Source: Methanothrix sp. (GTDB lineage Archaea > Halobacteriota > Methanosarcinia > Methanotrichales > Methanotrichaceae). From it: 64,000 nucleotides of DNA. The stretch spans positions 96,001-160,000 of the forward strand of contig OY821645.1 in assembly GCA_963682135.1 (NCBI GenBank). Direction: 5' to 3'. Positions 1 through 14,398 of this stretch are shown piece after piece (the first letter of the stretch is position 1; the number at the start of each line of letters is the position of its first letter). The translations under genes and the position numbers were made by a program. Below the pieces are notes generated by a model. That model saw only the letters and a program-made list of their open reading frames with translations, ran no database searches and was not told the DNA's origin.

Positions 1-93
1 TCACCGTATTTTCCTCTTTTAACTACGCCAACCAGCATGAATCATTGGATGAATGCTGGTGTTAATAGAGATTTGGCTGGGAAATCAAAAGAT

Positions 94-204
94 GGTCATG
101 TACTTGAGTTACAGAAAAGGTATCTTGAATCCCATCAGCTCCTTGATAGTCCATACATGATCAGTCATTCCTTCTGCCATTGCAGGTGTTCTTTGCTGCC
201 ACAC
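94..204 (-). mobile_element. IS1-family transposase 3' end remnant with probable terminal inverted repeat
   Basis: Minus-strand 204..109 reads [31 protein letters not shown], matching the RTPAMAxGxTDHVW C-terminal motif of archaeal IS1-type transposases. It is followed directly by a GGTCATGTACTTGAG end (94-108). The rest of the gene is missing. Confidence 0.7.
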
Positions 205-395
205 ACTGTGCCCGAACGCGCCCGCCCGGGGGCCCGCGAGCAGCTTTACGCAGTCTCATCGACACCTGGCTACCCTAATTTATGCGCAAGATTTTATAAT
301 CATTAATCAGTAACCTTAATAATATTAACGTTCACTATTAGCTTTCAGCGTGCTGAAAGCTAAGAATTTAGAGCCCGCATGCAAGAGGTAAGAAT

Positions 396-1283
396 ATGAA
401 ATCCAATAGAATAGCTGTCGGTATTATCATGATTGCCATGCTTGTCTCCCTTCTATCAATTTCATTGGTAGAAGGAAAAGATTTGACTCAATCGGATTAT
501 GAGGAGTACATTTTGAATTTTATCGGGGCAGCCTCTTATCAGTTGCCTGAACCGCCTTCTACTCTGTCGTCCCTTATCATGAGTTCCCCGAACCTCACGA
601 TGGGTGCTCTAAGAAATTGGGCATACAATAATATGCTGTCAACGACGCGTAACCTTTTGGATGCAGATCAGAGCGGCAACAAGGAGCAAATAGACTACTA
701 CAATAATCAGCTGGACCGCTGGCAAGCTGTGTATTCCTGCCTCAATGGAGATTGCGGGCATATGCAACAATTGGAGGCAGGTTCGGGGGCAGAACAGGCA
801 GGAACAGTACAGGCCACAACTGTCGCAACACCTGCCACAGGAAGACTTGCCGCCAATGGAACCAGTTATCAGAAAGGGGCGCTCCTCATTGGGCCCGTAT
901 CTCTTACAGCCGAATGGACCGATCCCCAAGATATCTTATTTCTTGATCAGGGCCGGCCTTATATCATTGTGGGAGAGGGGACATGCAGCCTCTGGGACAA
1001 CCCACCTGAACCGGATGGCGTGGATTCCTGCTTCGTTTATGCCAAATGGCGAATTGGAGATGTACCGCAAGTATGGGGTCAACTGGAATTGGTCGATCCT
1101 TCGGCTCACCTGAGCGATCTCATCGAGAGGAATACCGGAAAGCCGGCAGAATACAATCCATCCCATATCTATGAGGCAGTTGTCTTTGGAGAAGGAAAGA
1201 TGCTCAAAGCCCGTGTCTTCGATGGCGGAGGCTACAGCGATAATCACGGAGAATTGAGAATCAGTGTCTACCAGGCAATCTAA
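396..1283 (+). CDS. Secreted hypothetical protein
   Basis: 295 aa ORF with GAGG RBS and N-terminal signal peptide (MKSNR + hydrophobic stretch + VEG). A helical N-terminal part, a Thr/Ala linker and a beta-rich C-terminal part follow. Confidence 0.75.
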   Translation: MKSNRIAVGIIMIAMLVSLLSISLVEGKDLTQSDYEEYILNFIGAASYQLPEPPSTLSSLIMSSPNLTMGALRNWAYNNMLSTTRNLLDADQSGNKEQIDYYNNQLDRWQAVYSCLNGDCGHMQQLEAGSGAEQAGTVQATTVATPATGRLAANGTSYQKGALLIGPVSLTAEWTDPQDILFLDQGRPYIIVGEGTCSLWDNPPEPDGVDSCFVYAKWRIGDVPQVWGQLELVDPSAHLSDLIERNTGKPAEYNPSHIYEAVVFGEGKMLKARVFDGGGYSDNHGELRISVYQAI

Positions 1284-1842
1284 TGCTACAAATGGATTGG
1301 GATAGATGGATTGAGATGAGATATAATTTCAATTGCGCACGGCAGGCATACTGTACGCGCCCTGTAATCCATCGTCACTTATTTTTGGGCCACCGCGCAC
1401 TGTTCTCACGTCCTCAGCCTGAAATGGCACACCCTGCCGCCCCGATCTCTTGGGATCAAGAGGTGCTGAAACGATAATCGCAATCGTCTATATCTATTAT
1501 AAGTTATACGGCTGGTTGGCGATCCGCGGCAAACACTGTTTTTATCTTCCCTCCTTTACCCGGATCGCCATCCCTCATTTTATCTCTCGATCCTTTCATT
1601 AGTTCAAATATCCCAGCCCTTCGACTTGGTGGGGAGCTAGCCTAAGTCCGCCTCAATAACATTCATCATACCTTCTTTTGCATTCTGCCAAGTCGTCAAA
1701 GCGCGAGCCGCTCTGTCGGTCGTAGCGTCGCCTCGTCTTTTTCATGTGCTTCCCTCCATGAGTTGATGTTGCTTAACTCATTGTCTACTCGGAGGGGTTC
1801 ACTTCAATTCTGATGCTATAGGGTTTCGAGACATTCAGGACT

Positions 1843-4482
1843 CTATAATGAATTGGTTTTTTCGCGAAGCTGTCTTCTACCAATCCCCAAATAATCCTCA
1901 AATATGCGGTACTCCAGGTTATACAAAGCTGCCAGATCGTAACTCTCTCTGTCCACCATGCTCGGATCAGCCTTAGGATATCCCATAAAGCCTGGCCTGG
2001 CAAATAGGCCGTCCTTAAATACCTGAGATTCTGTAAATAACAGGAACTTGCCTTTGCCGTAATGCGCTTCTGCCAATACCACCCGCCCCTCAATGGCAAG
2101 AAGTGGCCTGCCTCCTTTGATGGCCAATCCCCAGGGCTTTATGGGCAATCCATCTTTCCACGCCCAAACCGTGTCCCTCAAGGAATCGTTTGCAGCAATA
2201 TCAGCAGGCTCTTGTAGATCATATGTTTGCATGCCGAAATTTTTTATTACATCCGACCAGGCCCCCTCTGAAGAAACCATGAGCAAAACGTTGTTTCCGC
2301 CTTTGATGTAATCTTGCAGTGATGCCAATTCTTCTCGTGACAATTCCGCCACTGGATCGATCACCACCATCGCTCTACCCTTGGCCATAGCATCCTGCAT
2401 CCGCTCTTCCATCGCCGGCGTCAAATTGACCCTCTGCGTCCATATGTAAAAGGTCTCATACTCTCCCTGCAAGTCTCCCCGGCTGGTAATATTTCCAGAA
2501 TGCTCCCCGTCAAATCCGACCGTATGGTTGTAATCATAGAACTGGCTGGGGATGGTGTTCTCCCCTTTTGTGGAAAATATCTGCAGCGCCCCGCCGACAG
2601 CAAGGGCTCCTATGGCCAGCACGACCAGCAGCGCTGCCATCTTCCGCTCTCCCCAGCTCTCTCTTCCCAGCAGGAATAGAGCCAGGCATGCGAAGATCAA
2701 TCCCAAGAGGAATAGGATCTGCTTTTCATTCTCATAGGAATTCTTGCGATTGAGGTACTCCATAGCCCCGATGACAAAATTGCAGGAGCCACCGAAGAAT
2801 ATCCTAAAATTGGATATGATGGTGGAATCGGCAAATGCCACAACTCTTCCTTTTCCATATTTCACTGCCACCGCCTGATTTAGGAGACCCCAAGCTGTGT
2901 CCGTGACTTGCGTGGGATCGTTCTCCCTTGTCTCTCTGAAAAATCCCACCGAGGCAAACTCGCCGGGATCGGCACGAAGGCCTGAGCCCACGATCACAGG
3001 CTCGCTCCAGAGAGGTGCCTCAAGGCTGCAGCCGGTCATGAAATCCAGATTGGGCATATACTTGATGACCGGATGCAGAAAGTTTTCTCGCTGGAAGTAA
3101 AATAGTCTTCCCTTGATGGTATTGACGGCATCAAACCCGAATTCTATTCCGAATTTCCCGGATAGTTGGTTCAGATTAGTGCCGATGCCGGCGAAGTTGG
3201 TATGATCGCCGATCAGGAAGAGTCCGCCTCCGTTCTCCACAAAACGCACTATAGCGTTAATTTCGGATGGTTGATAAGCGGAAGGAGTCTTTATTATTAA
3301 TATATCATAATTCGTTAGAATCTCATCAGTTATACGATCTGATATAATATCGGGGACGACTTTCGTTGCGCCTGTTACATTCCATTCCTCAAAAGACGGG
3401 CTTACGATACGGTCCACCTGATAGGTATCATTGAGCCATTCGATCATGCTGTAGGAATTGTAGGTGGAATTTTCCCCATACCAATTCCGGTCAAGCTTGA
3501 GTGTGGAGAACTCCCAGATGGAATGGATCTCATCCACCAAAACCCGTCCCTCCTTCTCTGTACCAGTATCCAGAAAGAGTGCTGAGGAGGTCAAACAGAA
3601 AACGCTTAGAATTGCCACCGTGAGAGCCATGGCCTTCTTTCTGTCCACCTGCATCTGGAAATCAAGCTTGAGTACTTCGGGAATTTTCAAACGGAGGAAC
3701 AGCAGCACCAGTGGCACAAAACTCAATATCAGCCACCAGGAGTCTGTGAAGATATCATTCCTCACACCAGCTGCTTCAGGTAAATCTCTGTAAAAAAATA
3801 TATGTACAAGAATGACATACCTCAGCAAGGAGTAGAGAATGCTGACGATAATGGTCAGAAGAGCACGTTTTAAGAAAGAAAAAATATTTTGCGATATTAT
3901 GAATAATATTAATAATGAACCAACGTATATCAAGATCCATGGATAGAAGCCAAGCTTTTCGAAGGTTACCGTAAAGGGGAACACCTTCTCTTGGGCAAGG
4001 ATAAAGACCACACCCCCATTTGCTGCTGCATCAATGCCCGTCAGGTCAAGGATGTATGCTATGCCGGAGGCCAGAGCCCCAGCAAAGTGATAATTTGCAG
4101 CCAGGATATAGTAGATGGAAAGGGCCAGAGACTGCAAGATAAGGACTGTCCCGGAAAATATGGCAGCCAGCCAGATCATAACCAATCTGGGAGCGACCAG
4201 AGCGACCGCAAGACCAACGATACAGATGATCAGGCCTGCATTATAAGGATAAGGGATCGCCCAGCTGGAGAGAAGCAGGGGGGGTAAAATGGCGCCGTAT
4301 TTCTGATCAATAGATGCATCAGTCCTCCAAAAGGATATGACGGAAATTGCTATCCCCAGCAGAAGGGATGATATGCCCAGAATAGAGCTGGTTGTCTGGC
4401 CGTAAATATCAACAGAGAACAACCAGAATGCAGCTAATGGTATCACTGCCAACCATAATAATTGCTTCATGCTTTGCATCAT
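1843..4482 (-). CDS. Large polytopic membrane protein: degenerate exosortase/archaeosortase-like TM region plus two DUF4350/GATase-like (GldG/IFT52-type) domains
   Basis: About 10 N-terminal TM segments. Soluble-domain motifs YDILIIKTP..E..AIVRFVENGGGLFLIGDH and YGKGRVVAFADS; a second copy LQDYIKGGNNVLL..YGKGKFLLF follows a 2-TM linker. Start moved from 4542 to ATG 4482 to remove the overlap with the upstream gene. Confidence 0.75.
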   Translation of the reverse strand: MMQSMKQLLWLAVIPLAAFWLFSVDIYGQTTSSILGISSLLLGIAISVISFWRTDASIDQKYGAILPPLLLSSWAIPYPYNAGLIICIVGLAVALVAPRLVMIWLAAIFSGTVLILQSLALSIYYILAANYHFAGALASGIAYILDLTGIDAAANGGVVFILAQEKVFPFTVTFEKLGFYPWILIYVGSLLILFIISQNIFSFLKRALLTIIVSILYSLLRYVILVHIFFYRDLPEAAGVRNDIFTDSWWLILSFVPLVLLFLRLKIPEVLKLDFQMQVDRKKAMALTVAILSVFCLTSSALFLDTGTEKEGRVLVDEIHSIWEFSTLKLDRNWYGENSTYNSYSMIEWLNDTYQVDRIVSPSFEEWNVTGATKVVPDIISDRITDEILTNYDILIIKTPSAYQPSEINAIVRFVENGGGLFLIGDHTNFAGIGTNLNQLSGKFGIEFGFDAVNTIKGRLFYFQRENFLHPVIKYMPNLDFMTGCSLEAPLWSEPVIVGSGLRADPGEFASVGFFRETRENDPTQVTDTAWGLLNQAVAVKYGKGRVVAFADSTIISNFRIFFGGSCNFVIGAMEYLNRKNSYENEKQILFLLGLIFACLALFLLGRESWGERKMAALLVVLAIGALAVGGALQIFSTKGENTIPSQFYDYNHTVGFDGEHSGNITSRGDLQGEYETFYIWTQRVNLTPAMEERMQDAMAKGRAMVVIDPVAELSREELASLQDYIKGGNNVLLMVSSEGAWSDVIKNFGMQTYDLQEPADIAANDSLRDTVWAWKDGLPIKPWGLAIKGGRPLLAIEGRVVLAEAHYGKGKFLLFTESQVFKDGLFARPGFMGYPKADPSMVDRESYDLAALYNLEYRIFEDYLGIGRRQLREKTNSL

Positions 4483-4496
4483 GTCATCCCAAATTT

Positions 4497-7019
4497 TTAC
4501 ATAGTTAGAATCTTCTGCAATAGCTCGATATTTCCCAACCACTGGAGCTGATACTGCTCCCGGTTTTCTTTTCCTACTCCTTGCGACAGATGTTCCAGAT
4601 TTTCATTGAGAAGGAACCTTGAGTCTCCGATGAGGATCACATTCCCCTGGCCTACATTTTTCTGAATAATCAGATTATAGGCGACGCCATTGTAGCGCAT
4701 CCATGCAATCGGCTTATACTCACCATCCGCCTGGACCGGATAGGCCTCCATGAACTTGGGTTTATGCCAGTACCGTTTCAGATTTTCCTGGGATACGATT
4801 GCCTGTCCTCCGGTAGCGTGGGTTTCTTCAATCCAGGGAAACGAGCCCAGAGGAAGGTCTCCAATCCCAAGGCCAAAAGACTTCAATATCAAGTCCATGG
4901 GACCGGCGCTTTTATGACCGGCGCACAGGATCAGCAAACCACCAGCCTCTACGAATTCTTTGATTTCCAGGGCATCTTTTGCAGTATAGTCTTCATTGGG
5001 AGCAATTATGATCGCAACCGACCCTTTGTGGATATCGGAAATGCTATTGTCTTTCTGCAAAATCTGAGGCAAAAAACCATTTCGAAAGAGATTCAAGGTC
5101 AATCCTGCCACGCCGTCATCTCGGTAGTTCTCCAGATTGAACTGGTTTAGATGAGTGTAATCTATCCAGGCCACGTCCACCAGAGGCTCTTCTGCAGCTT
5201 TCATCAAAGAATTATTGATGCTTGCGGCAAGTCCCAGTGAGAGGGCCGCTGCCAAAGCGAGATATATCAGGAATCGCAGAGAAATTTTAATTCTATATAT
5301 ATAAGCTGCAAGGGCAAAAAGAAGGAAAATGGATGCATAGTATTGATAGGCAGCATAATCTGATTCGCGGCTTGTCAACCAGGATGCGGAATTGTAGACC
5401 AGGTTATATCTAAACGGCAATTCATTATTGAATATATAAGATGTGTCCCCAAATACCAGCACCTTTCCCTTGCCATAGGTATCGCATGCTGCAATGACCA
5501 GGTCGCCTAGGACTTCGCCTGGTTCATAAATCCTGTCTCCGAGGTGTCCTGGCGTACTCTGATTGGATTTGTCCGAAAAAGCGAACCGTCCTATGATCAG
5601 GGGCCTGGCCTTGCCGCTAAGACTTAGAGATGCGCCTACGGATGATGTGGTCAGATCAAAATCCAAATCTCTGGTGACCGGATGGGGAAGGGCTGTGGCA
5701 GCGTACTGCCAGTGTTCCGGGATATAGTCCGCGGTGTCGGAATTGATTCTAATTCCGGTTGGGTCAAGCACATCATTCAGATAATCTCTTCCGGATGCAA
5801 AATCTTGATCCGGGACAAACATAGATGTATGCTCGGCAAAGACCAGAAGGCTCCCGCCATTTTTCACAAATTCTCTAATTCTCTGCAGATCGGTGGATGA
5901 GAATCCCTTTTTGAGGTTGAGCAGTATTAGAATATTGGCATCTTTTAGGGCGTCTTTCAATTCACGAGAATTTGTCGAGTTCAGGCTCTCTACCACTCCG
6001 CCCATATTCTCCAAATATCGCTTTATAGCTCCCACGGAAAAACCATCGTTCGGTGCAAAGGATTGATTTGCCTCTGGAAAGTTTGGAATATCAAATCCCA
6101 TCTCACTGTCCTTTTCATAAATCACTGCCCTGCCTATCCCCTCAGAATTAGAATAGGGAACTGTCGCTATTAGTAATATGGCAAAGAAGAGTGCTATTAA
6201 GATGGCCCCCTGCCCTGGCGATGGGACCCAGTTTCCAGGGTCAAGTGATTTGATCTTCATCTTTGATACAAAAATCAAGAATGGTATCATTAGCACAAAA
6301 AATATGAGAAATATGTGGTCAATATATTTATCCGCGCTGGACCAAATCCCAAGAACGGTCAGGAAATAGACCGCATAGAGCATTGCAAACCCCATCATGA
6401 CCGCAATTAATGCCTTGATCGGATGGGATGATCTCTTTTCGGATAATATAAAAAAGGAGACGACGCAGCAGAGAAACGTCAGAAAAATAAATGTGCCGCT
6501 GATAGTAGGACCGAGAGAGAGGGGGATGCCCTCAAGTCTGCCAAAAAAAGCAGATGCGGTTAATGATAATGATGTGAAGAATCTCCCGAAGAATGAATCA
6601 TTAATATTATATATATACAAGATTGAGTAAAATAGACTGCCCAATGCCAGAGCGGATATATATGGCTCATCTTCTCCTGCCGATCTCAAGAGCAGATCAA
6701 ATCCACAGATGAATATAATTAAGCTTAATATCCAGAATTCCGGTTTATCTATGCTTACCAGAGCTGCAAATGATAATAATATCAGAGATACGCCGGCAAC
6801 AGAAATAGAATTGATCTGTAGCTTTGTTAATGAGCTAATGTATGCTATCAGTAGTACGACCAGGCACAATATTCCGCAGACCCGCAGAAATATTGGCGAA
6901 GCGTACCCCATGTTGAGAGAAAAAAGGTTCAGGGAAAGCATAATTAATATAATTGAGGCCAATCTTTTGATAACGATAATTGCCTCCGTTGATGGACCTA
7001 TCATGAAATAGTCAAGCAC
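4497..7019 (-). CDS. Large polytopic membrane protein with two DUF4350/GATase-like domains, same architecture as 1843..4482
   Basis: About 9 N-terminal TM segments, then IREFVKNGGSLLVFAEH..YGKGKVLVFGD, 2 TMs, and IKEFVEAGGLLIL..VGQGNVILIGDSRFL. True start may be ATG 7004. Confidence 0.75.
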   Translation of the reverse strand: MLDYFMIGPSTEAIIVIKRLASIILIMLSLNLFSLNMGYASPIFLRVCGILCLVVLLIAYISSLTKLQINSISVAGVSLILLSFAALVSIDKPEFWILSLIIFICGFDLLLRSAGEDEPYISALALGSLFYSILYIYNINDSFFGRFFTSLSLTASAFFGRLEGIPLSLGPTISGTFIFLTFLCCVVSFFILSEKRSSHPIKALIAVMMGFAMLYAVYFLTVLGIWSSADKYIDHIFLIFFVLMIPFLIFVSKMKIKSLDPGNWVPSPGQGAILIALFFAILLIATVPYSNSEGIGRAVIYEKDSEMGFDIPNFPEANQSFAPNDGFSVGAIKRYLENMGGVVESLNSTNSRELKDALKDANILILLNLKKGFSSTDLQRIREFVKNGGSLLVFAEHTSMFVPDQDFASGRDYLNDVLDPTGIRINSDTADYIPEHWQYAATALPHPVTRDLDFDLTTSSVGASLSLSGKARPLIIGRFAFSDKSNQSTPGHLGDRIYEPGEVLGDLVIAACDTYGKGKVLVFGDTSYIFNNELPFRYNLVYNSASWLTSRESDYAAYQYYASIFLLFALAAYIYRIKISLRFLIYLALAAALSLGLAASINNSLMKAAEEPLVDVAWIDYTHLNQFNLENYRDDGVAGLTLNLFRNGFLPQILQKDNSISDIHKGSVAIIIAPNEDYTAKDALEIKEFVEAGGLLILCAGHKSAGPMDLILKSFGLGIGDLPLGSFPWIEETHATGGQAIVSQENLKRYWHKPKFMEAYPVQADGEYKPIAWMRYNGVAYNLIIQKNVGQGNVILIGDSRFLLNENLEHLSQGVGKENREQYQLQWLGNIELLQKILTM

Positions 7020-7049
7020 TCCTCAAGGCGATCTATTACCGTTCGTGTG

Positions 7050-7140
7050 TTCTTTAAGGTATTATATTTTTTTTTGTTATCTTCTTTGTAGATATAAGTC
7101 TTCCGCCTTTTATCAATTCCGAAAGGTACTTATATGGAAC
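7050..7140. promoter_or_regulatory. Divergent archaeal promoter region (BRE/TATA-like boxes on both strands)
   Basis: Plus strand CCGAAAGGTACTTATAT (7119-7135); minus strand AAAAAATATAATA (~7072-7060). Lies within the 207-bp gap between divergent genes. Confidence 0.4.
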
Positions 7141-7226
7141 AGTGCAAAAAGATGTAAAGGTTCATTGAGCGCTTCAATTGTATTTGCATCCGTTGGGCTG
7201 GAGTCATATCTGCGGGAGGGTTAGGA

Positions 7227-8504
7227 ATGATACGGGAACGATTGTCGTTGGTCATAGTCTTTTCTTTATTATCAATATGTATCGCTACAGCTTCGTCGGA
7301 GGCGGGATCTGATGCTAATTCAATTTCAGCAAGCAACACGCCTCTATTTGATTACAGATACAATCAGGTTGCAGAAGATTTAGGACTCTTGAAAAACGGC
7401 GCTTCCGAAAGCAAACTTGAATATGGGAGCATTGAGACTGCAAGCTTAACCCCTCTGGATATCCCTCAGAAAAAAGGCTGTAGACTCCAAATCAAGCAAG
7501 CTGACCTCACAATGGGTGTCTGCCAGTGGGAGACCGAGCAGACCTGCTTTGATAGCTGCGGCAGCACCTGTTCTGGTACCTGCGGCGGAACTTGCGGTAA
7601 CACATGTGGTGACACTTGTAGTGGTACCTGTTTGCTCAGCTGCCGGACTTGCATTCTCTCGTGCGGTGCAGACACCTGCGGCAGCACCTGCCAGGATAGC
7701 TGCGGTGGTTGCGGTCAAACATTGAGTTACACATGTGGGGATACTTGCGGGAATACCTGCAGAGACACTTGCATACGCACCTGTAGCAACACCTGTGCAA
7801 ATACATGTGGGCAAACGTGTCGCGGCACTTGTGCACGCACTTGCAGCAACACCTGTGCAAACACTTGTGGTCAAACTTGTGCCAATACATGTGGACAAAC
7901 CTGTCACAACACTTGCTTTGCCACCTGTCAGATGACCTGTGCCCGAACATGTCTGGCGACATGCTCGGCTACTTGCGCAGCTACTTGCCTGGCCACCTGC
8001 CAGCCGACATGTTCCGCTACTTGCGGCCCATATTGCGCAGGATCTCAAGCGGCTGCTCCTCTCAGTTCAAACGCTCCCCCGATGGCAAAGTCATCAACCA
8101 AGGCCCCTTTAATGGCGGAACAAAATTCGCTCAGGTCCTACAATGTTGTGGCAAATCCGCCGACATCGGTCAGTTATTTGGGAGCATATATTCCCTGGAC
8201 AGTCTTCCAGCAAAGCTTCTCTGGAAAAGAGATCTACGCCTGGGTTGAGACTGAGGGTGGCTGGGATATAGTCGCAAAGACACCAAAAGGCACATGGGTG
8301 CGCGAGTTCGTTTTCGTTCCGTCAAATGGAAATATGATCTTAAATGAAATCGCACCTGATGGAAATACTCGCAGCCAGAAATTCGAACAGGTAGTAGAGG
8401 GATACAAATATATCTGGATCTATGCGGGAAATCCGGGATATTACGTAAGCACTTTCGGAAATATTGACCAAAAAGGCAACAATGTGACCCTCGAAGTTTA
8501 CTGA
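7227..8504 (+). CDS. Secreted Cys-Xaa3 (TCxx)n repeat protein with C-terminal beta-rich domain
   Basis: 425 aa: signal peptide, ~60 aa acidic region, a block with 43 Cys mostly at 4-residue spacing and mostly preceded by Thr/Ser, an Ala/Pro/Ser linker, and a ~120 aa aromatic beta-rich domain. Confidence 0.85.
   Translation: MIRERLSLVIVFSLLSICIATASSEAGSDANSISASNTPLFDYRYNQVAEDLGLLKNGASESKLEYGSIETASLTPLDIPQKKGCRLQIKQADLTMGVCQWETEQTCFDSCGSTCSGTCGGTCGNTCGDTCSGTCLLSCRTCILSCGADTCGSTCQDSCGGCGQTLSYTCGDTCGNTCRDTCIRTCSNTCANTCGQTCRGTCARTCSNTCANTCGQTCANTCGQTCHNTCFATCQMTCARTCLATCSATCAATCLATCQPTCSATCGPYCAGSQAAAPLSSNAPPMAKSSTKAPLMAEQNSLRSYNVVANPPTSVSYLGAYIPWTVFQQSFSGKEIYAWVETEGGWDIVAKTPKGTWVREFVFVPSNGNMILNEIAPDGNTRSQKFEQVVEGYKYIWIYAGNPGYYVSTFGNIDQKGNNVTLEVY
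7542..8036 (+). repeat. Coding tandem repeat, 12-bp period (ACN TGY NNN NNN), with a 60-bp higher-order duplication
   Basis: About 40 TCxx units. RTCSNTCANTCGQTC occurs at 7776 and again at 7836, exactly 60 bp apart, with synonymous differences. Confidence 0.9.
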
Positions 8505-8606
8505 AAAAAGCAATCAGGGTGTCCCAATGAGACATTAAGTGCGAAACCGCGCTCAAGGGATGCTCCCCTATTTCTTTGCTCCAATTAAAAGCTTTGGCAG
8601 TACTCC

Positions 8607-9803
8607 CTAAACGCAGATGTTGTCGATATCGGAAAACGTGTGCTGTACAGTATTCTTTTTCAGGTTCAGGCACCTTCTGGCCGCTTGCACTGCTTTTTCT
8701 CGATCTTCATCCCGACAGTAGATGCCGAAGCGCCAGGTAGCCCTGTGGGCTCTCTCCAGAATGCTGACCAGAGGAGAGACATCTCGCAGGGGTCTTACTT
8801 CTCCTTCCACAAGAGCCGGAAAGTTGCCCTCTGGTGTATCCATAAGCGCCGGATTATCCACCAGAATGTAATCGGCATCTATCCCAGCTTCATGGGCAAT
8901 CTCCTGGCCCAGCGTCTTCTCACTTACCTTGAGAATTGAGGGGTCAAGACGTTCCAGGCCAACGTAAACCGCCCGCTTGAATATTCTCCTCGATCGGATG
9001 CGCCAAGCCATCTCAGCCGCATAGCCGCCAGACCGATCCAGGGAATTGAAGAGCTCTATGTCATCCATATCTTTCACGCTGCAAGCACTGGTCCCCTCTT
9101 CAATCATGTGCCGGATGGCTGCGGCTATCATGCACTCCGATATGCGGCAGACATGATGATAATAAACGGATGGATGCATGAGCAGCCGAGAAATGAGCAG
9201 AGATGTCGCCGCCTGCACGCCTCCTGCCTCCACCACCAGCTCTCCACTGTGCAGAGTCATCTTTTGCAGCAGACGCAGTCGATCTATTACTCCGTAAGCT
9301 ACGCCCGTGTAATGAGCATCTCTGATCAAGTAGTCCATCCTATCCACATCGATCTCGCCGCTCACGATCTGCCCCAGGCCGACTCCATTTACAGCGGCCT
9401 GGATCTCGGAGGCTTTCAGGCCGTATTTGTCTAAAACCGCCCGCAGTTCGCCTTTCTTCAGAATATCAATGATGCTCTCGTGCTCCTTTCGCAGGTAGGG
9501 GGCAAGAGCTGCTTCTGTGGCATGAGATAGCGGTCCATGGCCTACGTCATGCAGAAGCGCTGCGGCGCCTACCAGCATCCTATCCTCTTCCGGCAGGCCA
9601 AGATGGTTCGCGAGCAGATCCGCCAGGTGATAGGCACCCAGGCTGTGCTCGAAGCGAGTATGGTTGGCACCGGGATAGACCAGGCTTGCCAGTCCTAGCT
9701 GCTTAATCCAGCGCAATCGCTGCATCTGGGGTGTGTCTGCGATTTCCAGGGCAAGGCCTTCCAGCAACACATAACCGTGCACGGGGTCTCGGATCTCGGT
9801 CAT
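8607..9803 (-). CDS. HD-domain phosphohydrolase (SAMHD1/dNTPase-like family)
   Basis: IRDPVHG, QRLRWIKQLG, YPGANHTRFEHSLG, ALLHDVGHGPLSH, DVDRMDYLIRD, VYYHH motifs. Confidence 0.9.
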   Translation of the reverse strand: MTEIRDPVHGYVLLEGLALEIADTPQMQRLRWIKQLGLASLVYPGANHTRFEHSLGAYHLADLLANHLGLPEEDRMLVGAAALLHDVGHGPLSHATEAALAPYLRKEHESIIDILKKGELRAVLDKYGLKASEIQAAVNGVGLGQIVSGEIDVDRMDYLIRDAHYTGVAYGVIDRLRLLQKMTLHSGELVVEAGGVQAATSLLISRLLMHPSVYYHHVCRISECMIAAAIRHMIEEGTSACSVKDMDDIELFNSLDRSGGYAAEMAWRIRSRRIFKRAVYVGLERLDPSILKVSEKTLGQEIAHEAGIDADYILVDNPALMDTPEGNFPALVEGEVRPLRDVSPLVSILERAHRATWRFGIYCRDEDREKAVQAARRCLNLKKNTVQHTFSDIDNICV

Positions 9804-10056
9804 CAGGCATAGCTGTGAGTTTCCTTACATTAAATATTAGTGTCCCAAATTTTTAGATACATTTATATACCAATGCCGGATTGTCCATTCCTCTCATGGA
9901 GTCAATTCCTGGCATGGCAGGTGTCTTTGTGAGGATTTGCAGACATTCTTCTTTGTCAAGAGATTCTATATCCGGCCAACGTGCCTGATAATTTCAGAAA
10001 CAATTAAGTCTGATAAGATAATCTCCTTAATATTATTTCATCCGAAGGCGACATAA

Positions 10057-11760
10057 ATGTCAATGGAATTTGGTTACATTATCCTGTTGTTAGGCACCCT
10101 GATAGTTCTGGCGTTGCCTGCGGGAAGATATATTGCGAAAATCTTCAACGGCGAGCCCACCCCAGTTACACCTCTCATTCGGCCAGTCGAACGGGCGTTT
10201 TACAGGATGGCGGGTGTGGATGAGACGAGAGAGATGTCCTGGAGGAGATACGTTGCCGCCCTCCTGATCTTCAATGCCCTGGGTCTGGCTGCCGTATTTT
10301 TGCTGCAGGAACTGCAGGGCTTTTTTCCTCTCAATCCTCAAAACCTGGGGGCAGTTCGTTGGGATACGGCTATCAACACCGCCGTCTCCTTCACCACCAA
10401 CACCAACTGGCAGGCTTATAGCGGGGAACAGACGATGAGCTACCTCACCCAAATGCTGGGCTTGACTGTGCAAAATTTCCTCTCGGCTGCTGTGGGGCTA
10501 TCTGCAGCCATGGCCGTCATTCGAGGCTTCACCCGCAAGAATGCCGCCACCCTGGGGAATTTCTGGGTCGACCTCACCCGGTCGGTGCTCTATCTGCTGC
10601 TTCCCCTGGCATTCATCTGGGCTCTACTATTTGCATCCCAAGGCGTAATTCAGACCCTGGGACCCAATGTCATCGCCCATACGATCGAGGGAGATGAGCA
10701 GGTTATCTCTTTGGGGCCCGTAGCTTCGCAGGAGGCCATTAAGCTCCTGGGAACCAACGGAGGCGGCTTCTTCAATGCCAACTCCGCCCATCCTTTTGAG
10801 AATCCCACACCTATCACGGATTTCCTGGAGGTGTTGGCCATGCTGCTCATAGCGGCATCGCTTCCTTTCGCCTTTGGCGCATTGGTCAATAATCCAAAAC
10901 AGGGTTGGGCCATATTTGCGGCCATGTTCATTCTCTATCTCATGGGCTTGGGCTTCGCCCTCTGGGCAGAAGGACAGGGGAGCCCTCTGCTGGAGAAGCT
11001 GGGCGTGGCCGGCGGAGTCAATATGGAAGGAAAAGAGGTACGCTTCGGCGTAGCGGCATCGGTGCTCTTTGCCCATTCCACTACAGTAACCTCCGATGGG
11101 GCTGTGAACAGCATGCACGAGAGCATGATGCCTCTAACCGGCCTGGTTCTGCTATTCAATATGGTCATCGGCGAGGTGATATTCGGCGGAGTCGGTGTGG
11201 GACTGATAGGCATTTTCTTCTATGCCATCATGACCATGTTCTTGGCCGGCCTCATGATAGGCCGCACTCCTGAGCTCTTCGGCAAAAAACTTGAGCCCTT
11301 CGAGATGAGAATGGCAGTCATCGGTCTGCTGGCTCCTTCCATCGTTCTGCTGATGCTTGCCAGCCTGGCCATAATCCTGCCCCAGGGTCTCTTTAGTCTG
11401 AACAACGGCGGGCCGCATGGACTCACAGAGATACTCTATGCCTTCGCCTCAGCCTGCGGCAATAACGGGTCCGCCTTTGCCGGCCTGAATGCCAATACCG
11501 CCTTTTACAATCTTACTCTGGCACTGGCTATGCTGGTAGGCAGATTTGCCACGATATTGCCGGCACTGGCCATAGCCGGCTCCCTGGCGGCAAAGAGGAT
11601 AGTGCCTGCCAGCACGGCTACCTTCCCTGTCGCCAGTCCGCTCTTCGTGATCATGTTGGTCGGCACGATCATCATAGTCGGGGCTCTGACCTTCTTCCCC
11701 GTCTTTGTGCTTGGACCCATACTCGAGCACCTGATGATGTCGGCAGGCAGGACTTTTTGA
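10057..11760 (+). CDS. kdpA: K+-transporting ATPase subunit A
   Basis: [48 protein letters not shown] pore motifs. Confidence 0.97.
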
Positions 11761-13808
11761 GGAGGGATCATATGCACATCAATAAGTCCGATTTATGGCA
11801 GACGTCCCAGATAAAACAGGCCATTTCGAATTCCATCCCCAAGCTGGACCCGCGCCGCCTCTGGCGCAGCCCAGTAATGCTCGCCGTGGAGATGGGTGCC
11901 ATCCTGACCACTCTGATCACGGCGCGCGATTTGATCTGGGGTGGGGACGCGGCATTGGACGGCCAGATCAGCCTTTGGCTGTGGTTTACTGTACTCTTTG
12001 CCAACTTCGCTGAGGCTCTGGCAGAAGGACGGGGCCGGGCTCAGGCTGAGACTCTTCGTCAGGCGAAGAGCGAGGCCGTAGCCAGCAGACTGTTGGCTAA
12101 TGGCAAGATCGAGCAGGTAGCGGCTCAGCTGCTTGTTAAAGGCGATCTTGTCCTGGCTAAGGACGGCGATACCATTCCCAGCGACGGCGAGATCGTAGAG
12201 GGGGTCTCGCTGGTAGACGAATCAGCCATCACGGGCGAATCAGCGCCCGTAGTTCGCGAGGCCGGAGGCGACCTGTGTGGCGTCACAGGCGGCACAAGAG
12301 TCCTCTCCGGGAAGGTCAAGATCCTCATCACAGCGCAGCCTGGTAATACCTTCCTGGACCAGATGATAGGAATGGTGGAGAGCGCCAAACGCCAGAAAAC
12401 TCCCAATGAGCAGGCCCTGGAGATACTGCTCATAGGTCTTACCGGGCTATTCATGGTGGTTGTAATCACCCTCAATGTCTTTGCCGGGTACATGGGTATC
12501 ATCGTTCCCGTACCTGTACTGGTGGCGCTGCTGGTTTGCCTGATGCCTACCACAATCGGAGGCCTGTTGCCCGCCATCGGCATCGCCGGCATGGACCGGC
12601 TGCTTTCTCATAATGTCATCGCCATGAGCGGCAGGGCCGTGGAGGCCTCGGGCGACGTGGATGTGGTGCTCATGGACAAGACCGGTACCATCACCCTGGG
12701 AAACAGGATGGCCACCCAGTTCCTGCCCGCTGAGGGAGTGACGAAGGAGGAGCTGGCTTTGGCGGCGATGTACTCCTCCCTGGCGGACGAGACGCCTGAA
12801 GGCCGCAGCATAGTGGACTTATGCAAGGAGACTCTGGGTATCCGCGGCAGGGATATACGGGCGCCAGAGGCTAGCGTATTTATCCCCTTCAGCGCTGAGA
12901 CCCGCATGAGCGGCATAGACTGGGATAGTCGGCTGATCAGAAAAGGTGCACACGATGCCATAGGGCAATATGTAGAGAATCTAGGTGGCAGTATGCCGGA
13001 GGGCATCAGGGTTGCCGTGGAGAGCATCGCCCGGGAAGGCGGAACGCCATTGGTTGTGGCGGAAGGATCCAGAATCTTGGGTGCCATTCGATTGAAGGAT
13101 GTGCTGAAAACCGGTATCAAAGATCGATTGTCAAATTTGCGAAAAGTCGGCATTCGCTCCGTCATGATCACAGGAGACAATCCCATGACGGCAGCAGCCA
13201 TCGCCGCAGAAGCGGGAATCGATGACTTTATCGGCCAGGCTCGTCCCGAGGTCAAGCTGGAGGCCATTCGAAAGTATCAGAGGGAAGGTCACCTGGTGGC
13301 AATGATTGGAGACGGCACCAACGATGCTCCGGCTCTGGCCCAGGCCGATGTGGCCGTGGCCATGAATGCAGGAACACAGGCTGCCAGAGAGGCGGCCAAC
13401 ATGGTGGACCTGGATTCCAATCCTGCTAAACTGCTGGACATAGTGGAGATCGGTAAACAGATCCTGATCACACGAGGGGCGCTGACCACATTTAGCGTGG
13501 CCAATGATGTCTCCAAGTACTTTGCCATTATTCCTGCCATATTTGCGGCCGAATATCCCATGCTAAGTGTGCTGAACATCATGCATCTGGCAACTCCGAG
13601 CAGCGCTGTGCTTTCTGCGATTATATTCAATGCCATTATCATCCCTCTCTTGATACCGCTATCATTGCGGGGTGTGCGCTATACACCCACGACGGCCTCA
13701 CAACTGCTGAGACGCAATTTGCTATTCTATGGCCTGGGCGGACTGGCCGTGCCTTTTGTGGGCATCAAGCTGATCGATATGCTGGTTATTTTCCTGCATT
13801 TGGAGTGA
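11757..13808 (+). CDS. kdpB: K+-transporting ATPase subunit B (P-type ATPase)
   Basis: [29 protein letters not shown] motifs. Start may be ATG 11772 after GGAGG. Confidence 0.97.
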
Positions 13809-14398
13809 GGAAGATGTTCGAATATGCCAAAGAAATAAGGCCTGCAGTGATTCTGTTTATGGCCTTCTCTCTGCTCACCGGTCTTGCCTATCCTTTATTC
13901 ATAACCGGCATAGTCCAGACTGCCCTGCCTGCCAAGGCAGCAGGGAGCCTGTTGATAGTTGACGGCAGAATCGTAGGCTCAGAACTCATCGGCCAGACTT
14001 TCCAGAGCCCCGGTTACTTCCATGGACGGCCTTCGTATGTCAACTACAGTGCCAGCGACTCAGGTGCCAGCAACCTCGGGCCAACCAGTGTCAGGCTCAT
14101 GGAAGAGGTGAGCCGAAGGATAGATCAAGTCCGGCGCGAGAATAGTCTGCCTAATGATCTGAGCGTGCCCGCCGATCTGGTCATGAATTCCGGCAGCGGC
14201 CTGGACCCGCACATAAGCCGACAGGGTGCATTGGATCAGGTGGCGCGCGTGGCCGAAGCGAGAGGTCTGGCGCATTCTGTGGTGCAGGCGCGAATCGACC
14301 AGAATGTTGAGCCTGCCATGCTTGGCATACTGGGGCAGGAGAGGGTGAATGTGCTCAAGCTTAACCTGAACCTGGATGACATGACAAAGGAGAGTTAG
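13805..14398 (+). CDS. kdpC: K+-transporting ATPase subunit C
   Basis: [39 protein letters not shown] motifs. Start may be ATG 13814. Confidence 0.95.

Follow-up and report, generated by a model that had tools for sequence, protein, structure and literature searches.

Three adjacent genes in a 64,000-nucleotide stretch of Methanothrix sp. DNA (contig OY821645.1, positions 96,001 to 160,000; here called the window) were interpreted, with a probability of about 0.6, as a cell-surface module in which a heteromeric platform of two membrane proteins docks, holds or displays, and possibly matures, tagged cysteine-repeat proteins (the cargo). A functional link between the membrane pair and the Cys protein is well supported. 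The recurrence of the trio in distant archaea and bacteria points to an undescribed cell-surface machine, and no publication on this module was found in literature searches. An initial annotation, made from the letters of the sequence, had read the genes as a single functional unit distinct from canonical CXXX systems; recurrent linkage across genomes bears out this core inference. Its assignment of GldG/IFT52-type domains also stood, while its exosortase label did not. The features of the locus are as follows.

7227..8504, plus strand: cargo gene CysI, coding for a secreted Cys/Thr-repeat protein of 425 aa (ORF; period-4 Cys; orthologues 39-89% identical)
7227..7298, plus strand: signal peptide, about residues 1-24 (read from the sequence as MIRER, hydrophobic LSLVIVFSLLSICIA and TASS; putative cleavage site placed without a predictor)
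7335..7454, plus strand: tag block, residues 37-76 (TPLFDYRYNQVAEDLGLLKNG...SL.P; invariant columns in orthologues, tag HMM)
7521..8036, plus strand: Cys-x-x-Thr repeat region, residues 99-270 (length varies among orthologues)
8079..8504, plus strand: C-terminal Ig-like beta-sandwich "head", residues 285-425 (AF2 model; precomputed label PF27846)
7020..7226, no strand: AT-rich divergent spacer of 207 bp that separates the cargo gene from the pair
4497..7019, minus strand: first subunit of the pair, 840 aa, first-in-operon clade (ORF, Pfam, AF2, fold, tree)
6165..6992, minus strand: N-terminal polytopic membrane domain of the first subunit, residues 10-285, about 10 helices (AF2)
5364..6134, minus strand: GIFT domain 1 of the first subunit, residues 296-552 (fold matches; conservation over 116 proteins)
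5205..5354, minus strand: two-helix membrane hairpin of the first subunit, residues 556-605 (AF2 model)
4500..5183, minus strand: GIFT domain 2 of the first subunit, residues 613-840 (fold matches)
1843..4542, minus strand: second subunit of the pair, 899 aa, second-in-operon clade (ORF, Pfam, family profile, tree)

The spacer and the two tandem membrane ORFs (840 and 899 aa) were confirmed, and the divergent arrangement is kept in relatives (genomes G058, G065, G037, G060 and G003). The two minus-strand genes overlap by 46 nt; the length of the second subunit was counted from a GTG start, the start codon being uncertain.

The cargo contains 44 Cys and 35 TC dipeptides in 425 aa. An exact spacing of four was found in 36 of 43 successive Cys-Cys steps, and C-x-x-T was read in 33 of the 44 units, in agreement with the earlier description of a secreted protein with about 40 units. 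By direct reading, a basic n-region at the N-terminus is followed by the hydrophobic h-region MIRERLSLVIVFSLLSICIATASS. Cys makes up 25% of the repeat and is regularly spaced. This periodicity is well above chance expectation: periodic Cys runs of at least 8 occurred in 2 of the 2906 ORFs of at least 80 aa in the 3.04-Mb genome, the cargo being one of the two. The repeat region was modelled by AF2 as long helices at low confidence (pLDDT 25-70), so that "stalk" is a putative description of it. The head was well modelled (pLDDT about 85-95). Its fold matches were solely of the generic Ig/filamin type, and domains paralogous to it were present in 99 of 105 Methanotrichales genomes.

Both membrane proteins share one plan: a multi-helix membrane domain comes first, and two GIFT (GldG/IFT52/OST48-type) domains follow, with a two-helix hairpin between them. 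The same order, with the domains termed GATase-like, had been proposed in the initial annotation. It was recovered for the 840-aa subunit in an AF2 model (pLDDT 83.5, pTM 0.83) with helices at residues 10-285, alpha/beta structure at 297-550, helices at 556-574 and 581-605, and alpha/beta structure at 616-800, and the 899-aa subunit aligned with the family profile from position 11 to position 838 (E 4e-192). The second subunit is 25% identical to the first. ABC_transp_aux matches of 43.8 and 64.6 bits were obtained for the two proteins (cut-off 34.7), and DUF4350 and IFT52_GIFT were also above the Pfam cut-offs in both. In the first subunit, GIFT domain 1 matched the IFT52 N-terminal domain (5fms_A; Z 18.2, rmsd 2.8, 204 aligned) and OST48 (6s7o_G; Z 16.3), and GIFT domain 2 matched the S1P GATase-like domain (8uw8_A; Z 14.9) and GH42 trimerisation domains (Z 12.6-13.2). 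The hairpin carries a basic loop (read as RIKISLR) on its inner side. For the membrane domain of the first subunit, neither Pfam nor PDB gave a sequence match, no known family was found, and no fold was recognised in a search that barely probed this domain. Across the family, the membrane domain showed no conserved Cys, Arg, His or other polar, acidic or catalytic residues, and no conserved metal ligands.

The label "exosortase-like" had been attached to these proteins. PF09721 found nothing in the genome or in either membrane protein, profile-profile comparison (hhalign) with 7 archaeosortases gave a probability of 0.09%, and the absence of conserved Cys, Arg and His from the membrane domain argues against this label. 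A language-model lead to exosortase clusters (0.75-0.76) was rated below chance level, and inspection of the cargo found no C-terminal sorting signal. Cys at every fourth residue is a trait that the cargo shares with the Cys-Xaa3 repeat peptides targeted by radical SAM enzymes (TIGR04117), against which it gave a weak match (20.3 bits, cut-off 50); unlike them, it is secreted with a signal peptide, bears a tag and ends in a folded domain. A Radical_SAM match was absent from the window, as had been noted, the nearest being about 59 kb from the Cys gene. That the locus is a canonical CXXX-repeat radical-SAM system, or one of exosortase/archaeosortase-type sorting, is extremely improbable. Exosortase/PEP-CTERM, archaeosortase/PGF-CTERM and sortase/LPXTG are dedicated tag-and-machine sorting systems, and the logic of the present module is alike: a short conserved tag is borne by varied surface proteins, which are often rich in repeats, and a dedicated membrane machine encoded close by often serves several of them. 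However, its tag is N-terminal rather than C-terminal, its machine is not homologous and its membrane domain has no conserved catalytic Cys, Arg or His.

The pair resembles GldG (TIGR03521/PF09822), the accessory protein of the GldAFG gliding-motility ABC transporter, in being PF09822-positive with a membrane-flanked, predicted outward-facing domain. It differs in its TIGR03521 scores (12.6 and 19.9 bits, cut-off 389.85), in its two GIFT domains per chain and large N-terminal polytopic domain, in always being a paralogous tandem, and in that no ABC transporter genes recur beside it. The GIFT domains of IFT52, OST48/Wbp1 (oligosaccharyltransferase) and S1P are alike in fold and serve as non-catalytic docking modules; they differ in sequence (13-18% identity) and in belonging to eukaryotic proteins of unrelated complexes. 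A DUF4350/GldG-like extracellular domain is common to the pair and to the archaeal arCOG01314/DUF4350 "predicted secretion or membrane remodelling complex", for which Makarova et al. (2015) predicted surface-protein handling from gene neighbourhoods alone (PMC5898192). Compared with that complex, the pair is polytopic with two domains in each protein, has a tagged Cys-repeat cargo, and has no vWA or AAA+ partners among its recurring neighbours.

The 116 proteins of 58 tandem pairs were placed in one tree, in which a single branch (support 0.996, length 0.64) lies between the first genes and the second genes, 58 of each, without exception. This perfect split indicates ancient paralogy of the subunits, which always come in the same gene order and probably form a heteromer. 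The invariant positions of GIFT domain 1 in the first subunit were G388-G389-x-L391...H397-T398, N415, D428, G516-x-G518 and D525-T-S. Across the two subunit classes (116 proteins), H397-T398 was retained in 100% and 98-100% of members, with N415, D428 and D525-[TS][ST] conserved alongside, and the counterparts in the second subunit (H447-T448, N458, D471 and D572-S-T) were likewise conserved.

Invariance of this His-Thr/Asn/Asp/Asp-Ser-Thr cluster in both classes, over 58 systems, would also suit an extracytoplasmic maturation enzyme. The pair would then mainly be a catalyst that would modify the Cys and Thr of the repeat, or cut the leader-like tag, and release the product; glycosylation, thioether or disulfide cross-linking and tag cleavage, guided by the leader outside the membrane, are examples. 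His-Thr follows strand 390-394 of the GATase1-like fold (fold similarity from structure search), the place of the nucleophile in GATase1-type enzymes. Every repeat type retains two residues, Cys and Thr, the conserved N-terminal tag is leader-like, many cargo genes accompany one pair in some genomes, and GIFT domains have been proposed as sugar binders (PMC7226087). Maturation as the main role is nevertheless unlikely: across phyla, the neighbourhood of the pair shows no recurrent glycosyltransferase, oxidoreductase or other enzyme family, the membrane domain offers no conserved acidic or catalytic residues, and GIFT domains of solved structures are scaffolds or docking modules. It overlaps with the docking platform, and sequence alone does not part the two.

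Linkage within the order was surveyed in 105 Methanotrichales genomes, 17 of which had the window pair type. Cargo residues 1-280 were matched in 15 of the 17 genomes with the pair and in 5 of the 88 without it, so that the Cys protein rarely occurs alone, although such counts overstate significance because related genomes are not independent. In two of the five pair-less matches the Cys gene lies at the end of a contig, two are at E about 1e-3, and the fifth lies beside a 98-aa remnant of the second subunit. Of 10 loci with long flanks, 9 have a Cys-repeat gene no more than 3 kb from the pair. The linkage is repeated independently, with another kind of repeat, for a second type of pair (about 700 aa; identity 24-29%, summarised as 26%), which was present in 8 genomes. 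Secreted CPTGxx hexarepeat proteins were found in all 8 of these and in 2 of the 97 others, where both matches were weak or fragmentary; they adjoin the second pair type in 6 of 8 loci, one from another family of the phylum. There were exceptions. G002 retains the pair, the Cys gene being gone from the syntenic slot and a 223-aa Cys protein encoded elsewhere; G004 and G005 have a pair without an adjoining Cys gene; and in some genomes, e.g. G009, G090 and G005, Cys-protein genes outnumber pairs and lie away from the pair.

The cross-phylum set comprised 80 pair loci with 627 non-pair ORFs and included Verrucomicrobiota, Planctomycetota, Eisenbacteria, KSB1, Desulfobacterales, Spirochaetales, Thermoplasmatota and Theionarchaea. 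Of the 627 ORFs, 26 have periodic Cys runs of at least 8; the control genome has 2 such ORFs among 2906, and the enrichment over this whole-genome control is about 60-fold. The repeat periods were 4-5, 6, 7 and 13-15, with Thr in every type. Heptad Cys repeats were fused to varied heads (PBP_like_2, GEVED+DUF7901, transglutaminase core), which was counted as support for the stalk idea. The motif [ST]P[LA][FY] after a signal peptide was found in 33 of the 627 ORFs, whereas the control genome gave 10 among 2906. At least 40 of the 80 loci showed one or the other feature, tag or periodic Cys run. Neither was detected by the screens at 40 loci, many of which were short contigs or high-GC with poor ORF calls; some, e.g. 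Nitrospirota L163 and L164, look like true negatives. Homologues of the pair associate with Cys-repeat proteins across genomes, orders and phyla; the initial annotation had named the lack of such an association as refuting its reading.

Mere co-travelling of surface-protein genes in a variable region would be compatible with the imperfect linkage (G002, G004, G005, G101), with synteny by descent among close relatives and with the half of the distant loci that were negative. It is very unlikely and strongly disfavoured, given association with at least four unrelated repeat types in many phyla amid otherwise differing neighbours, the enrichment over the control, the phyletic match for two separate pair types and the specificity of the tag HMM.

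Tag columns L40, D42, Y43, R44, Y45, Q47, L52 and G53 were invariant in 16 cargo orthologues. A 22-aa tag HMM searched against 27,646 genome frames matched the cargo ORF alone (E 4.5e-6; next best 0.78). The cross-phylum consensus was SP[LA][FY]xxx[LMRY]xx[AQS], and the window tag block is the local version of this tag. The tag was also present on neighbours without Cys repeats in Verrucomicrobia and Thermoplasmatota. It was absent from the CPTGxx and heptad cargoes, so tag docking is not the whole story.

Metal or sulfide handling was judged distinctly unlikely. Here the extracellular Cys proteins would resemble metallothioneins and bind metal-sulfur clusters or soft metals (Fe, Ni, Co, Zn, Cu), and the pair would act as their receptor or transporter in uptake, detoxification or electron transfer. 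The evenly spaced Cys of the repeat and the large polytopic membrane domain of each subunit are in keeping with this, as are the carriers, most of which are named as anaerobic lineages in which thiols would stay reduced. Methanothrix requires Ni, Co and Fe and joins extracellular electron exchange, in an account whose relevant passages do not mention these genes (PMC10470525). Against this, no metal transporter, chaperone or regulator recurs near the pair, and the membrane domains are poorly conserved and without conserved metal ligands. The varied heads (Ig-like, phosphate-binding-protein-like, transglutaminase) and the Cys-poor proteins among the tagged neighbours fit general display or handling better.

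On the preferred reading of a surface platform, the cargo would be exported via Sec and cleaved, as its signal peptide suggests. The mature cargo would begin with the conserved tag TPLFDYRYNQVAEDLG..., followed by a Cys-x-x-Thr stalk of variable length and the Ig-like head. The paralogous subunits would assemble as a heteromer with the GIFT domains of both facing outward by topology. Most likely this platform would dock the cargo near the membrane through its N-terminal tag, hold or assemble it and possibly modify Cys or Thr, the Cys/Thr repeat projecting the head outward; the invariant cluster in both GIFT domains 1 would bind the tag or act on the repeats. A loop of the S1P GIFT subdomain contacts the Cys-rich protein SPRING (PMC11231238), which was taken as a precedent for docking of a Cys-rich partner by a GIFT domain. 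Co-folding of the first subunit alone with cargo residues 22-105 scored a median of 0.53 over 3 runs, with 0.00 for the best control. Of 157 solved complexes, 116 reached the mark used, as did 2 of 215 mismatched pairs; 18 of the 157 and both passing mismatches were at or below 0.60. The runs shared at least 30% of contacts at a partner pLDDT of at least 41 but returned no interface, and the model weakly supports docking of the N-terminal part of the cargo by the first subunit.

The two large membrane proteins encoded side by side in the window were treated as a pair. Taking all lines of evidence together, it is somewhat probable (about 0.6) that they constitute a dedicated handling platform for secreted cargo proteins carrying an N-terminal SP[LA][FY]-type tag, periodically spaced Cys residues, or both. 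The source genome, of which the window covers positions 96,001-160,000, is complete (3.04 Mb), and the nearest protein relatives are from sources named Methanothrix or Methanotrichaceae. The genes concerned are the following:

7227-8504, + strand: cargo gene, an ORF for a 425-aa protein with a typical signal peptide and 44 Cys
207 bp, AT-rich: spacer between the cargo gene and the pair
4497-7019, - strand: first subunit gene, 840 aa
1843-4542, - strand: second subunit gene, 899 aa, overlapping the first subunit gene by 46 nt

Successive Cys residues of the cargo are spaced exactly four residues apart in 36 of 43 pairs, with a periodic run of 27, and 33 of the 44 units read C-x-x-T. Both membrane proteins exceeded the cut-offs of PF09822 (ABC_transp_aux), PF14258 and PF23355, with DUF4350 and IFT52_GIFT among the Pfam matches. 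They are 25% identical to one another, and the genome encodes no other such genes. The first subunit was modelled with AlphaFold2 using 41 homologues (pLDDT 83.5, pTM 0.83), and the model was divided as follows:

Residues 10-285: about ten membrane helices
Residues 297-550: alpha/beta domain
Residues 556-605: helical hairpin with the basic loop RIKISLR
Residues 616-800: second alpha/beta domain

Because of the basic loops, both alpha/beta domains are predicted to face outward. Fold searches matched the first domain to the N-terminal domain of IFT52 (Z 18.2, rmsd 2.8, 204 residues) and to OST48 (Z 16.3), the second to the GATase-like domain of site-1 protease (Z 14.9) and to GH42 trimerisation domains, and the model to the GATase1-like protein 3rht (Z 16.0). 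By sequence and fold, the pair members belong to the GIFT (GldG/IFT52/OST48-type)/ABC_transp_aux/DUF4350 superfamily, with a class-I-GATase-like fold. The gene layout and the architecture common to both proteins, as described in the initial annotation, were borne out by the ORFs, the spacer, the Pfam matches and the AlphaFold2 model. A profile search of the membrane domain against PDB sequences returned only proteorhodopsin (E 0.14-0.2), and only scattered DUFs were obtained from Pfam at E<=10. In the Foldseek and VIA results for the 840-residue model the GIFT domains predominated, and residues 1-290 were barely probed.

The relationship of the two proteins was examined in a tree built from 58 loci, drawn from distant phyla and from the two pair types of Methanotrichales (types I and II). 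Each locus supplied two clean tandem ORFs of 650 aa or more; loci whose ORFs were truncated or contained N were excluded, as was a duplicate record. In the FastTree phylogeny (LG+gamma; 116 proteins, 703 columns) one branch (support 0.996, length 0.64) parted 58/58 first-in-operon from 58/58 second-in-operon proteins, with the 840-aa protein of the window in the first clade and its 899-aa protein in the second. The duplication is therefore older than all these lineages, and the gene order has not changed since. Judged from sequence, an ancient fixed-order paralogy of this kind is what would be expected for two distinct subunits of one complex. A polar cluster in GIFT1, the first of the two GIFT domains, is kept in both classes: G-G-x-L...H397-T398 (100% and 98-100%), N415, D428 and D525-[TS]-[ST]. 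The membrane domains of the two classes have almost nothing in common: first subunits conserve only W96, G106, Y131/Y135 and G38 there, and second subunits only P277. At E<=1e-30 the family comprised 554 representatives (50%-identity clusters), many matched over about residues 20-811.

Sixteen cargo orthologues (39-89% identity) were aligned. A conserved block directly follows the signal peptide (residues 37-76, PLFDYRYNQ..LG...G.S.SKL.YGSI.T.SL.P) and precedes the Cys-x-x-Thr array, the length of which differs among orthologues by four-residue steps. The C-terminal domain (285-425) is also conserved and was confidently modelled as a generic Ig-like beta sandwich; the C-terminus (...GNNVTLEVY) closes this domain, and there is no C-terminal hydrophobic segment. 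AlphaFold2 modelled the repeat as long helices at pLDDT 25-70, which appears too unreliable to pick among helical, beta-solenoid and extended-stalk forms.

The window cargo carries the tag as TPLF at residues 38-41. Together with many neighbours of pairs in other phyla it conforms to the consensus [ST]-P-[LA]-[FY]-x-x-x-[LMRY]-x-x-[AQS]-[VAI]-x-x-[LM]-[EG], which begins 27-37 residues from the start, just past the signal peptide. A tag HMM (22 residues, 15 seeds) found the cargo as its sole match among 27,646 frames of the source genome (E 4.5e-6; next best 0.78), and beside pairs it picked up non-seed proteins as well. Cargoes built of heptad or CPTGxx repeats do not carry the tag. Thirteen cargo proteins had no family in NCBIfam release 20 or in the Pfam copy searched; Pfam labels precomputed for the window's proteins are PF27846 and PF27016. 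The other periodic-Cys ORF of the source genome, at 572692-574710 on the - strand and outside the window, encodes a 672-aa secreted protein with CDDGNPCT-type repeats and has no pair near it.

Linkage of cargo and pair was surveyed in 105 genomes of Methanotrichales. Homologues of the 840-aa protein occurred in 23 of these, as type I pairs (44-100% identical, about 850 aa; 17 genomes) and type II pairs (24-29% identical, about 700 aa; 8 genomes). The Cys protein was searched for with residues 1-280, which hold the tag and the repeat, the widespread C-terminal domain being left out, and matches were obtained in 20 genomes. These comprised 15/17 type I genomes versus 5/88 others, the genomes being related and not independent. 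The two type I genomes lacking a match are 78% and 80% complete. Among the five pair-less genomes with a match, two have the Cys gene at the extreme end of a contig, two gave matches of E about 1e-3 to ORFs of about 100 aa, and one (G100) has a 98-aa second-subunit remnant beside a Cys-poor copy. At this last locus (G100:C119) the remnant (5523-5819) is 61% identical and the neighbouring Cys-protein gene (6528-7433) retains only 14 Cys; the module appears to be in decay.

Where type I loci had long flanks, the Cys-repeat gene lay within 3 kb of the pair in 9/10, in divergent, convergent or same-strand orientation. The exception (G002) keeps the pair and lacks the Cys gene in a syntenic slot that is still filled in its congener G001 (loci L065 and L064, respectively); a 223-aa Cys protein was found on another contig of G002. 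Three additional type I loci on short contigs (L069, L070, L071) were uninformative or negative. Runs of N or X were seen inside the Cys-repeat genes of two loci (L073 and L083). Cys repeats of this sort seem to assemble poorly, and their absence from draft genomes is therefore weak evidence.

Type II pairs go with a secreted protein of CPTGxx hexarepeats, which adjoins the pair in 6/8 loci, one of them in G173, a genome from another family of the phylum. The genomes of the two loci without an adjacent hexarepeat gene had 5 and 17 matches elsewhere. Within the order the hexarepeat query matched 10 genomes, namely 8/8 with type II pairs, one with a 119-aa fragment and one with a match at E 9e-5. 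Thus the two distinct pair types each follow their own kind of Cys repeat. Directly upstream of the type II pair, in 8/8 loci (L076-L082 and L114; e.g. L081:6619-7428), is a membrane-anchored protein of ~250 aa that begins with a signal peptide, has a beta-rich body, ends in a helix and belongs to no Pfam family. This protein is a candidate third subunit or, alternatively, a candidate adaptor for the tag-less CPTGxx cargo. In four loci a family-less secreted protein of 180-210 aa also accompanies the pair, whether of type I or of type II (L072:8197-8736, L073:4945-5484, L081:13756-14394, L082:2599-3216).

For more distant relatives, an alignment of ten homologues 25-31% identical to the window protein was used as the query, giving 121 related places in species-representative genomes. 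The best 80 of the 121 were analysed, a set that includes a few Methanotrichaceae records and one duplicate and that covers Verrucomicrobiota, Planctomycetota, Nitrospirota, Eisenbacteria, KSB1, Desulfobacterales, Spirochaetales, Bacteroidota, Thermoplasmatota and Theionarchaea. In 52/80 loci the pair was visible as two pair-like ORFs of 300 aa or more; most of the others are cut by contig ends. Periodic Cys runs of at least 8 occurred in 26/627 non-pair ORFs, spread over 23 loci, against 2/2906 ORFs of the whole source genome, the cargo being one of these two. Considering only loci with at least 3 kb upstream, 20/48 had a periodic-Cys neighbour, mostly directly upstream on the same strand. 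Repeat periods were 4-5 (TCxx), 6 (TCDxxx), 7 (TxCPxxx) and 13-15 (NPMDxxC...T), with Thr in all. The initial annotation had proposed looking for Cys-repeat proteins beside pair homologues in other genomes, and the association was found both within the order and across phyla.

A hydrophobic segment followed by [ST]P[LA][FY] was present in 33/627 neighbour ORFs versus 10/2906 control ORFs. The tag also occurs on neighbours devoid of Cys repeats: in Verrucomicrobia on Pro-rich proteins with CxxC..YH knuckles, and in Thermoplasmatota on one to three proteins of ~225 aa (SPLFAVRTQ...) encoded just after the pair. A tagged or periodic-Cys neighbour was found in at least 40/80 loci. This count is a minimum, since simple ORF calling failed in several of the negatives, which have high GC or lie on short contigs, and another negative bears the tag variant SPYY. 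Some loci, e.g. in Nitrospirota, look truly negative. Neighbour clustering of 101 pair loci revealed no family recurring across phyla except the cargo families. The heptad TxCPxxx repeats are fused to very different domains (transglutaminase core, GEVED+DUF7901 and PBP_like_2 in L145, L168 and L209), apparently as a portable stalk or linker.

Contact between cargo and pair was assessed by co-folding the first subunit alone with cargo residues 22-105. The score was 0.53 (median of three runs; best control 0.00), in a range (<=0.60) where a pass is more likely to be wrong than right if the pairing was not already probable; the pLDDT of the partner was at least 41, and contacts agreed by at least 30% across runs. 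A precedent is the GIFT domain of site-1 protease, which touches the Cys-rich partner SPRING (PMC11231238). The two membrane proteins would form a heteromeric platform, on which the Sec-exported cargo would dock via its N-terminal tag, beside the membrane; the platform might then retain, assemble or modify the cargo. Either anchoring or enzymatic maturation would fit, and the thiols might bind metal, form cross-links or serve some other purpose. The Cys/Thr repeat would serve as a stalk bearing a head domain, an idea suggested by the design of the cargoes, with tag, repeat and Ig-like head here and heptad repeats joined to varied domains elsewhere. Any specific chemistry on the cargo is less probable than the handling role itself. 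The fullest version is an unlikely one: an ancient archaeal and bacterial system, non-homologous to sortases, exosortases and known secretion systems, in which a four-GIFT heteromer would read the SP[LA][FY] tag and cross-link or modify Cys/Thr at a His-Thr/Asp site outside the membrane, giving rigid thioether-, disulfide- or metal-bridged stalks with varied heads.

Several known systems were compared with the module. The initial annotation had called the membrane proteins exosortase-like, and this identity was not upheld. PF09721 matched neither protein at E<=0.1, nor any of 20 N-terminal domains at E<=10; it also found nothing in the whole source genome at E<=0.001, though archaeosortases were found in relatives. 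Alignment of the N-terminal profile with 7 archaeosortases by hhalign gave a probability of 0.09%, and the exosortase language-model score (0.75-0.76) was lower than shuffled sequences reach. In exosortases and archaeosortases the membrane domain carries a catalytic Cys, Arg and His that are conserved; that of the pair conserves none of these three residues. Their cargo ends in a C-terminal signal of a motif, then a helix, then a basic tail; here, in contrast, the cargo lacks a C-terminal sorting signal and the conserved tag is N-terminal.

Identity with GldG was rejected, since the TIGR03521 scores (12.6 and 19.9 bits) fall far short of the 389.85-bit cut-off. GldG is encoded with ABC transporter genes of the GldA/GldF type, and no ABC transporter family was seen to recur beside the pair when all neighbours in 101 loci were clustered. 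The predicted secretion complex of the arCOG01314 type, as described by Makarova et al. (2015; PMC5898192), combines a signal peptide with a single C-terminal helix and shares its operon with genes for a vWA protein and a MoxR AAA+ ATPase. Set against that description, the pair proteins are instead polytopic with two domains; of the neighbours in the window, those tested encode an HD-domain protein and a family-less secreted protein, and vWA/MoxR partners were not recurrent in the 101 loci. The cargo was likewise rejected as a CXXX radical-SAM target (TIGR04117 at 20.3 bits, cut-off 50). The genome has 38 Radical_SAM matches, none of them inside the window; the nearest one, at position 163,840 of the genome, is some 59 kb away from the Cys gene. 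This agrees with the earlier statement that this is no canonical CXXX system. A core component of the Methanothrix sheath was also considered; the pair is present in only 23/105 genomes of the order and is therefore no core sheath part.

Current annotation names the membrane proteins only DUF4350 or 'Gldg family'. Methanothrix is a major methane producer. Nothing on the module was found in open-licence PMC papers and bioRxiv preprints, and it is unmentioned in the available portion of the DIET transcriptome paper (PMC10470525). If the handling role is true, several hundred large membrane proteins now labelled DUF4350 or 'GldG family' would receive their first functional context, and secreted proteins with evenly spaced Cys would acquire a dedicated partner and could be recognised by an N-terminal tag. 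Sequence-based prediction of cargo would then be possible in Methanothrix, Thermoplasmatota, the PVC group (Planctomycetota, Verrucomicrobiota) and many uncultured lineages. The module would represent a new type of tag-and-machine surface system alongside sortases and exosortases and an unstudied, lineage-variable cell-surface component of Methanothrix. It would also offer a route to the role of bacterial and archaeal GIFT domains, the eukaryotic relatives of which, in IFT52 and OST48, are poorly understood.

The surroundings of the module, in which no tRNA was found within window positions 1-10000, contain these further features:

396-1283, + strand: 295-aa signal-peptide protein, convergent with the pair, with no Pfam or NCBIfam family
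1716-1807, intergenic: short dispersed repeat of ~90 bp, just downstream of the second subunit gene
8607-9803, - strand: HD + HD_assoc_2 phosphohydrolase (PF19276, E 9e-71)
10057-14398, + strand: three overlapping ORFs (567, 683 and 197 aa), by eye a kdpABC-like potassium-uptake operon

Within the genus, 6 loci have the phosphohydrolase gene next to the Cys gene, which is probably plain synteny. The 295-aa protein is not kept beside the pair in relatives; two RNA-library contigs cover parts of it. In an RNA-labelled wetland metatranscriptome (run X1), contigs 90-99% alike were found on 840-1268, 2301-2483, 5912-6065 and 7397-8427, covering among other things stretches of the cargo gene and of both subunit genes. 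Such libraries may contain DNA, and neither level nor strand is visible in these contigs, which hint at relatives in the wetland habitat and are no proof of transcription of the locus. Three runs of unknown kind (X2, X4 and X6) contain the locus. For the ~90-bp repeat, 5 genomic matches of 80-100% identity were obtained; contigs of several runs end at it, and word depth there reached about 29,000 in X6.
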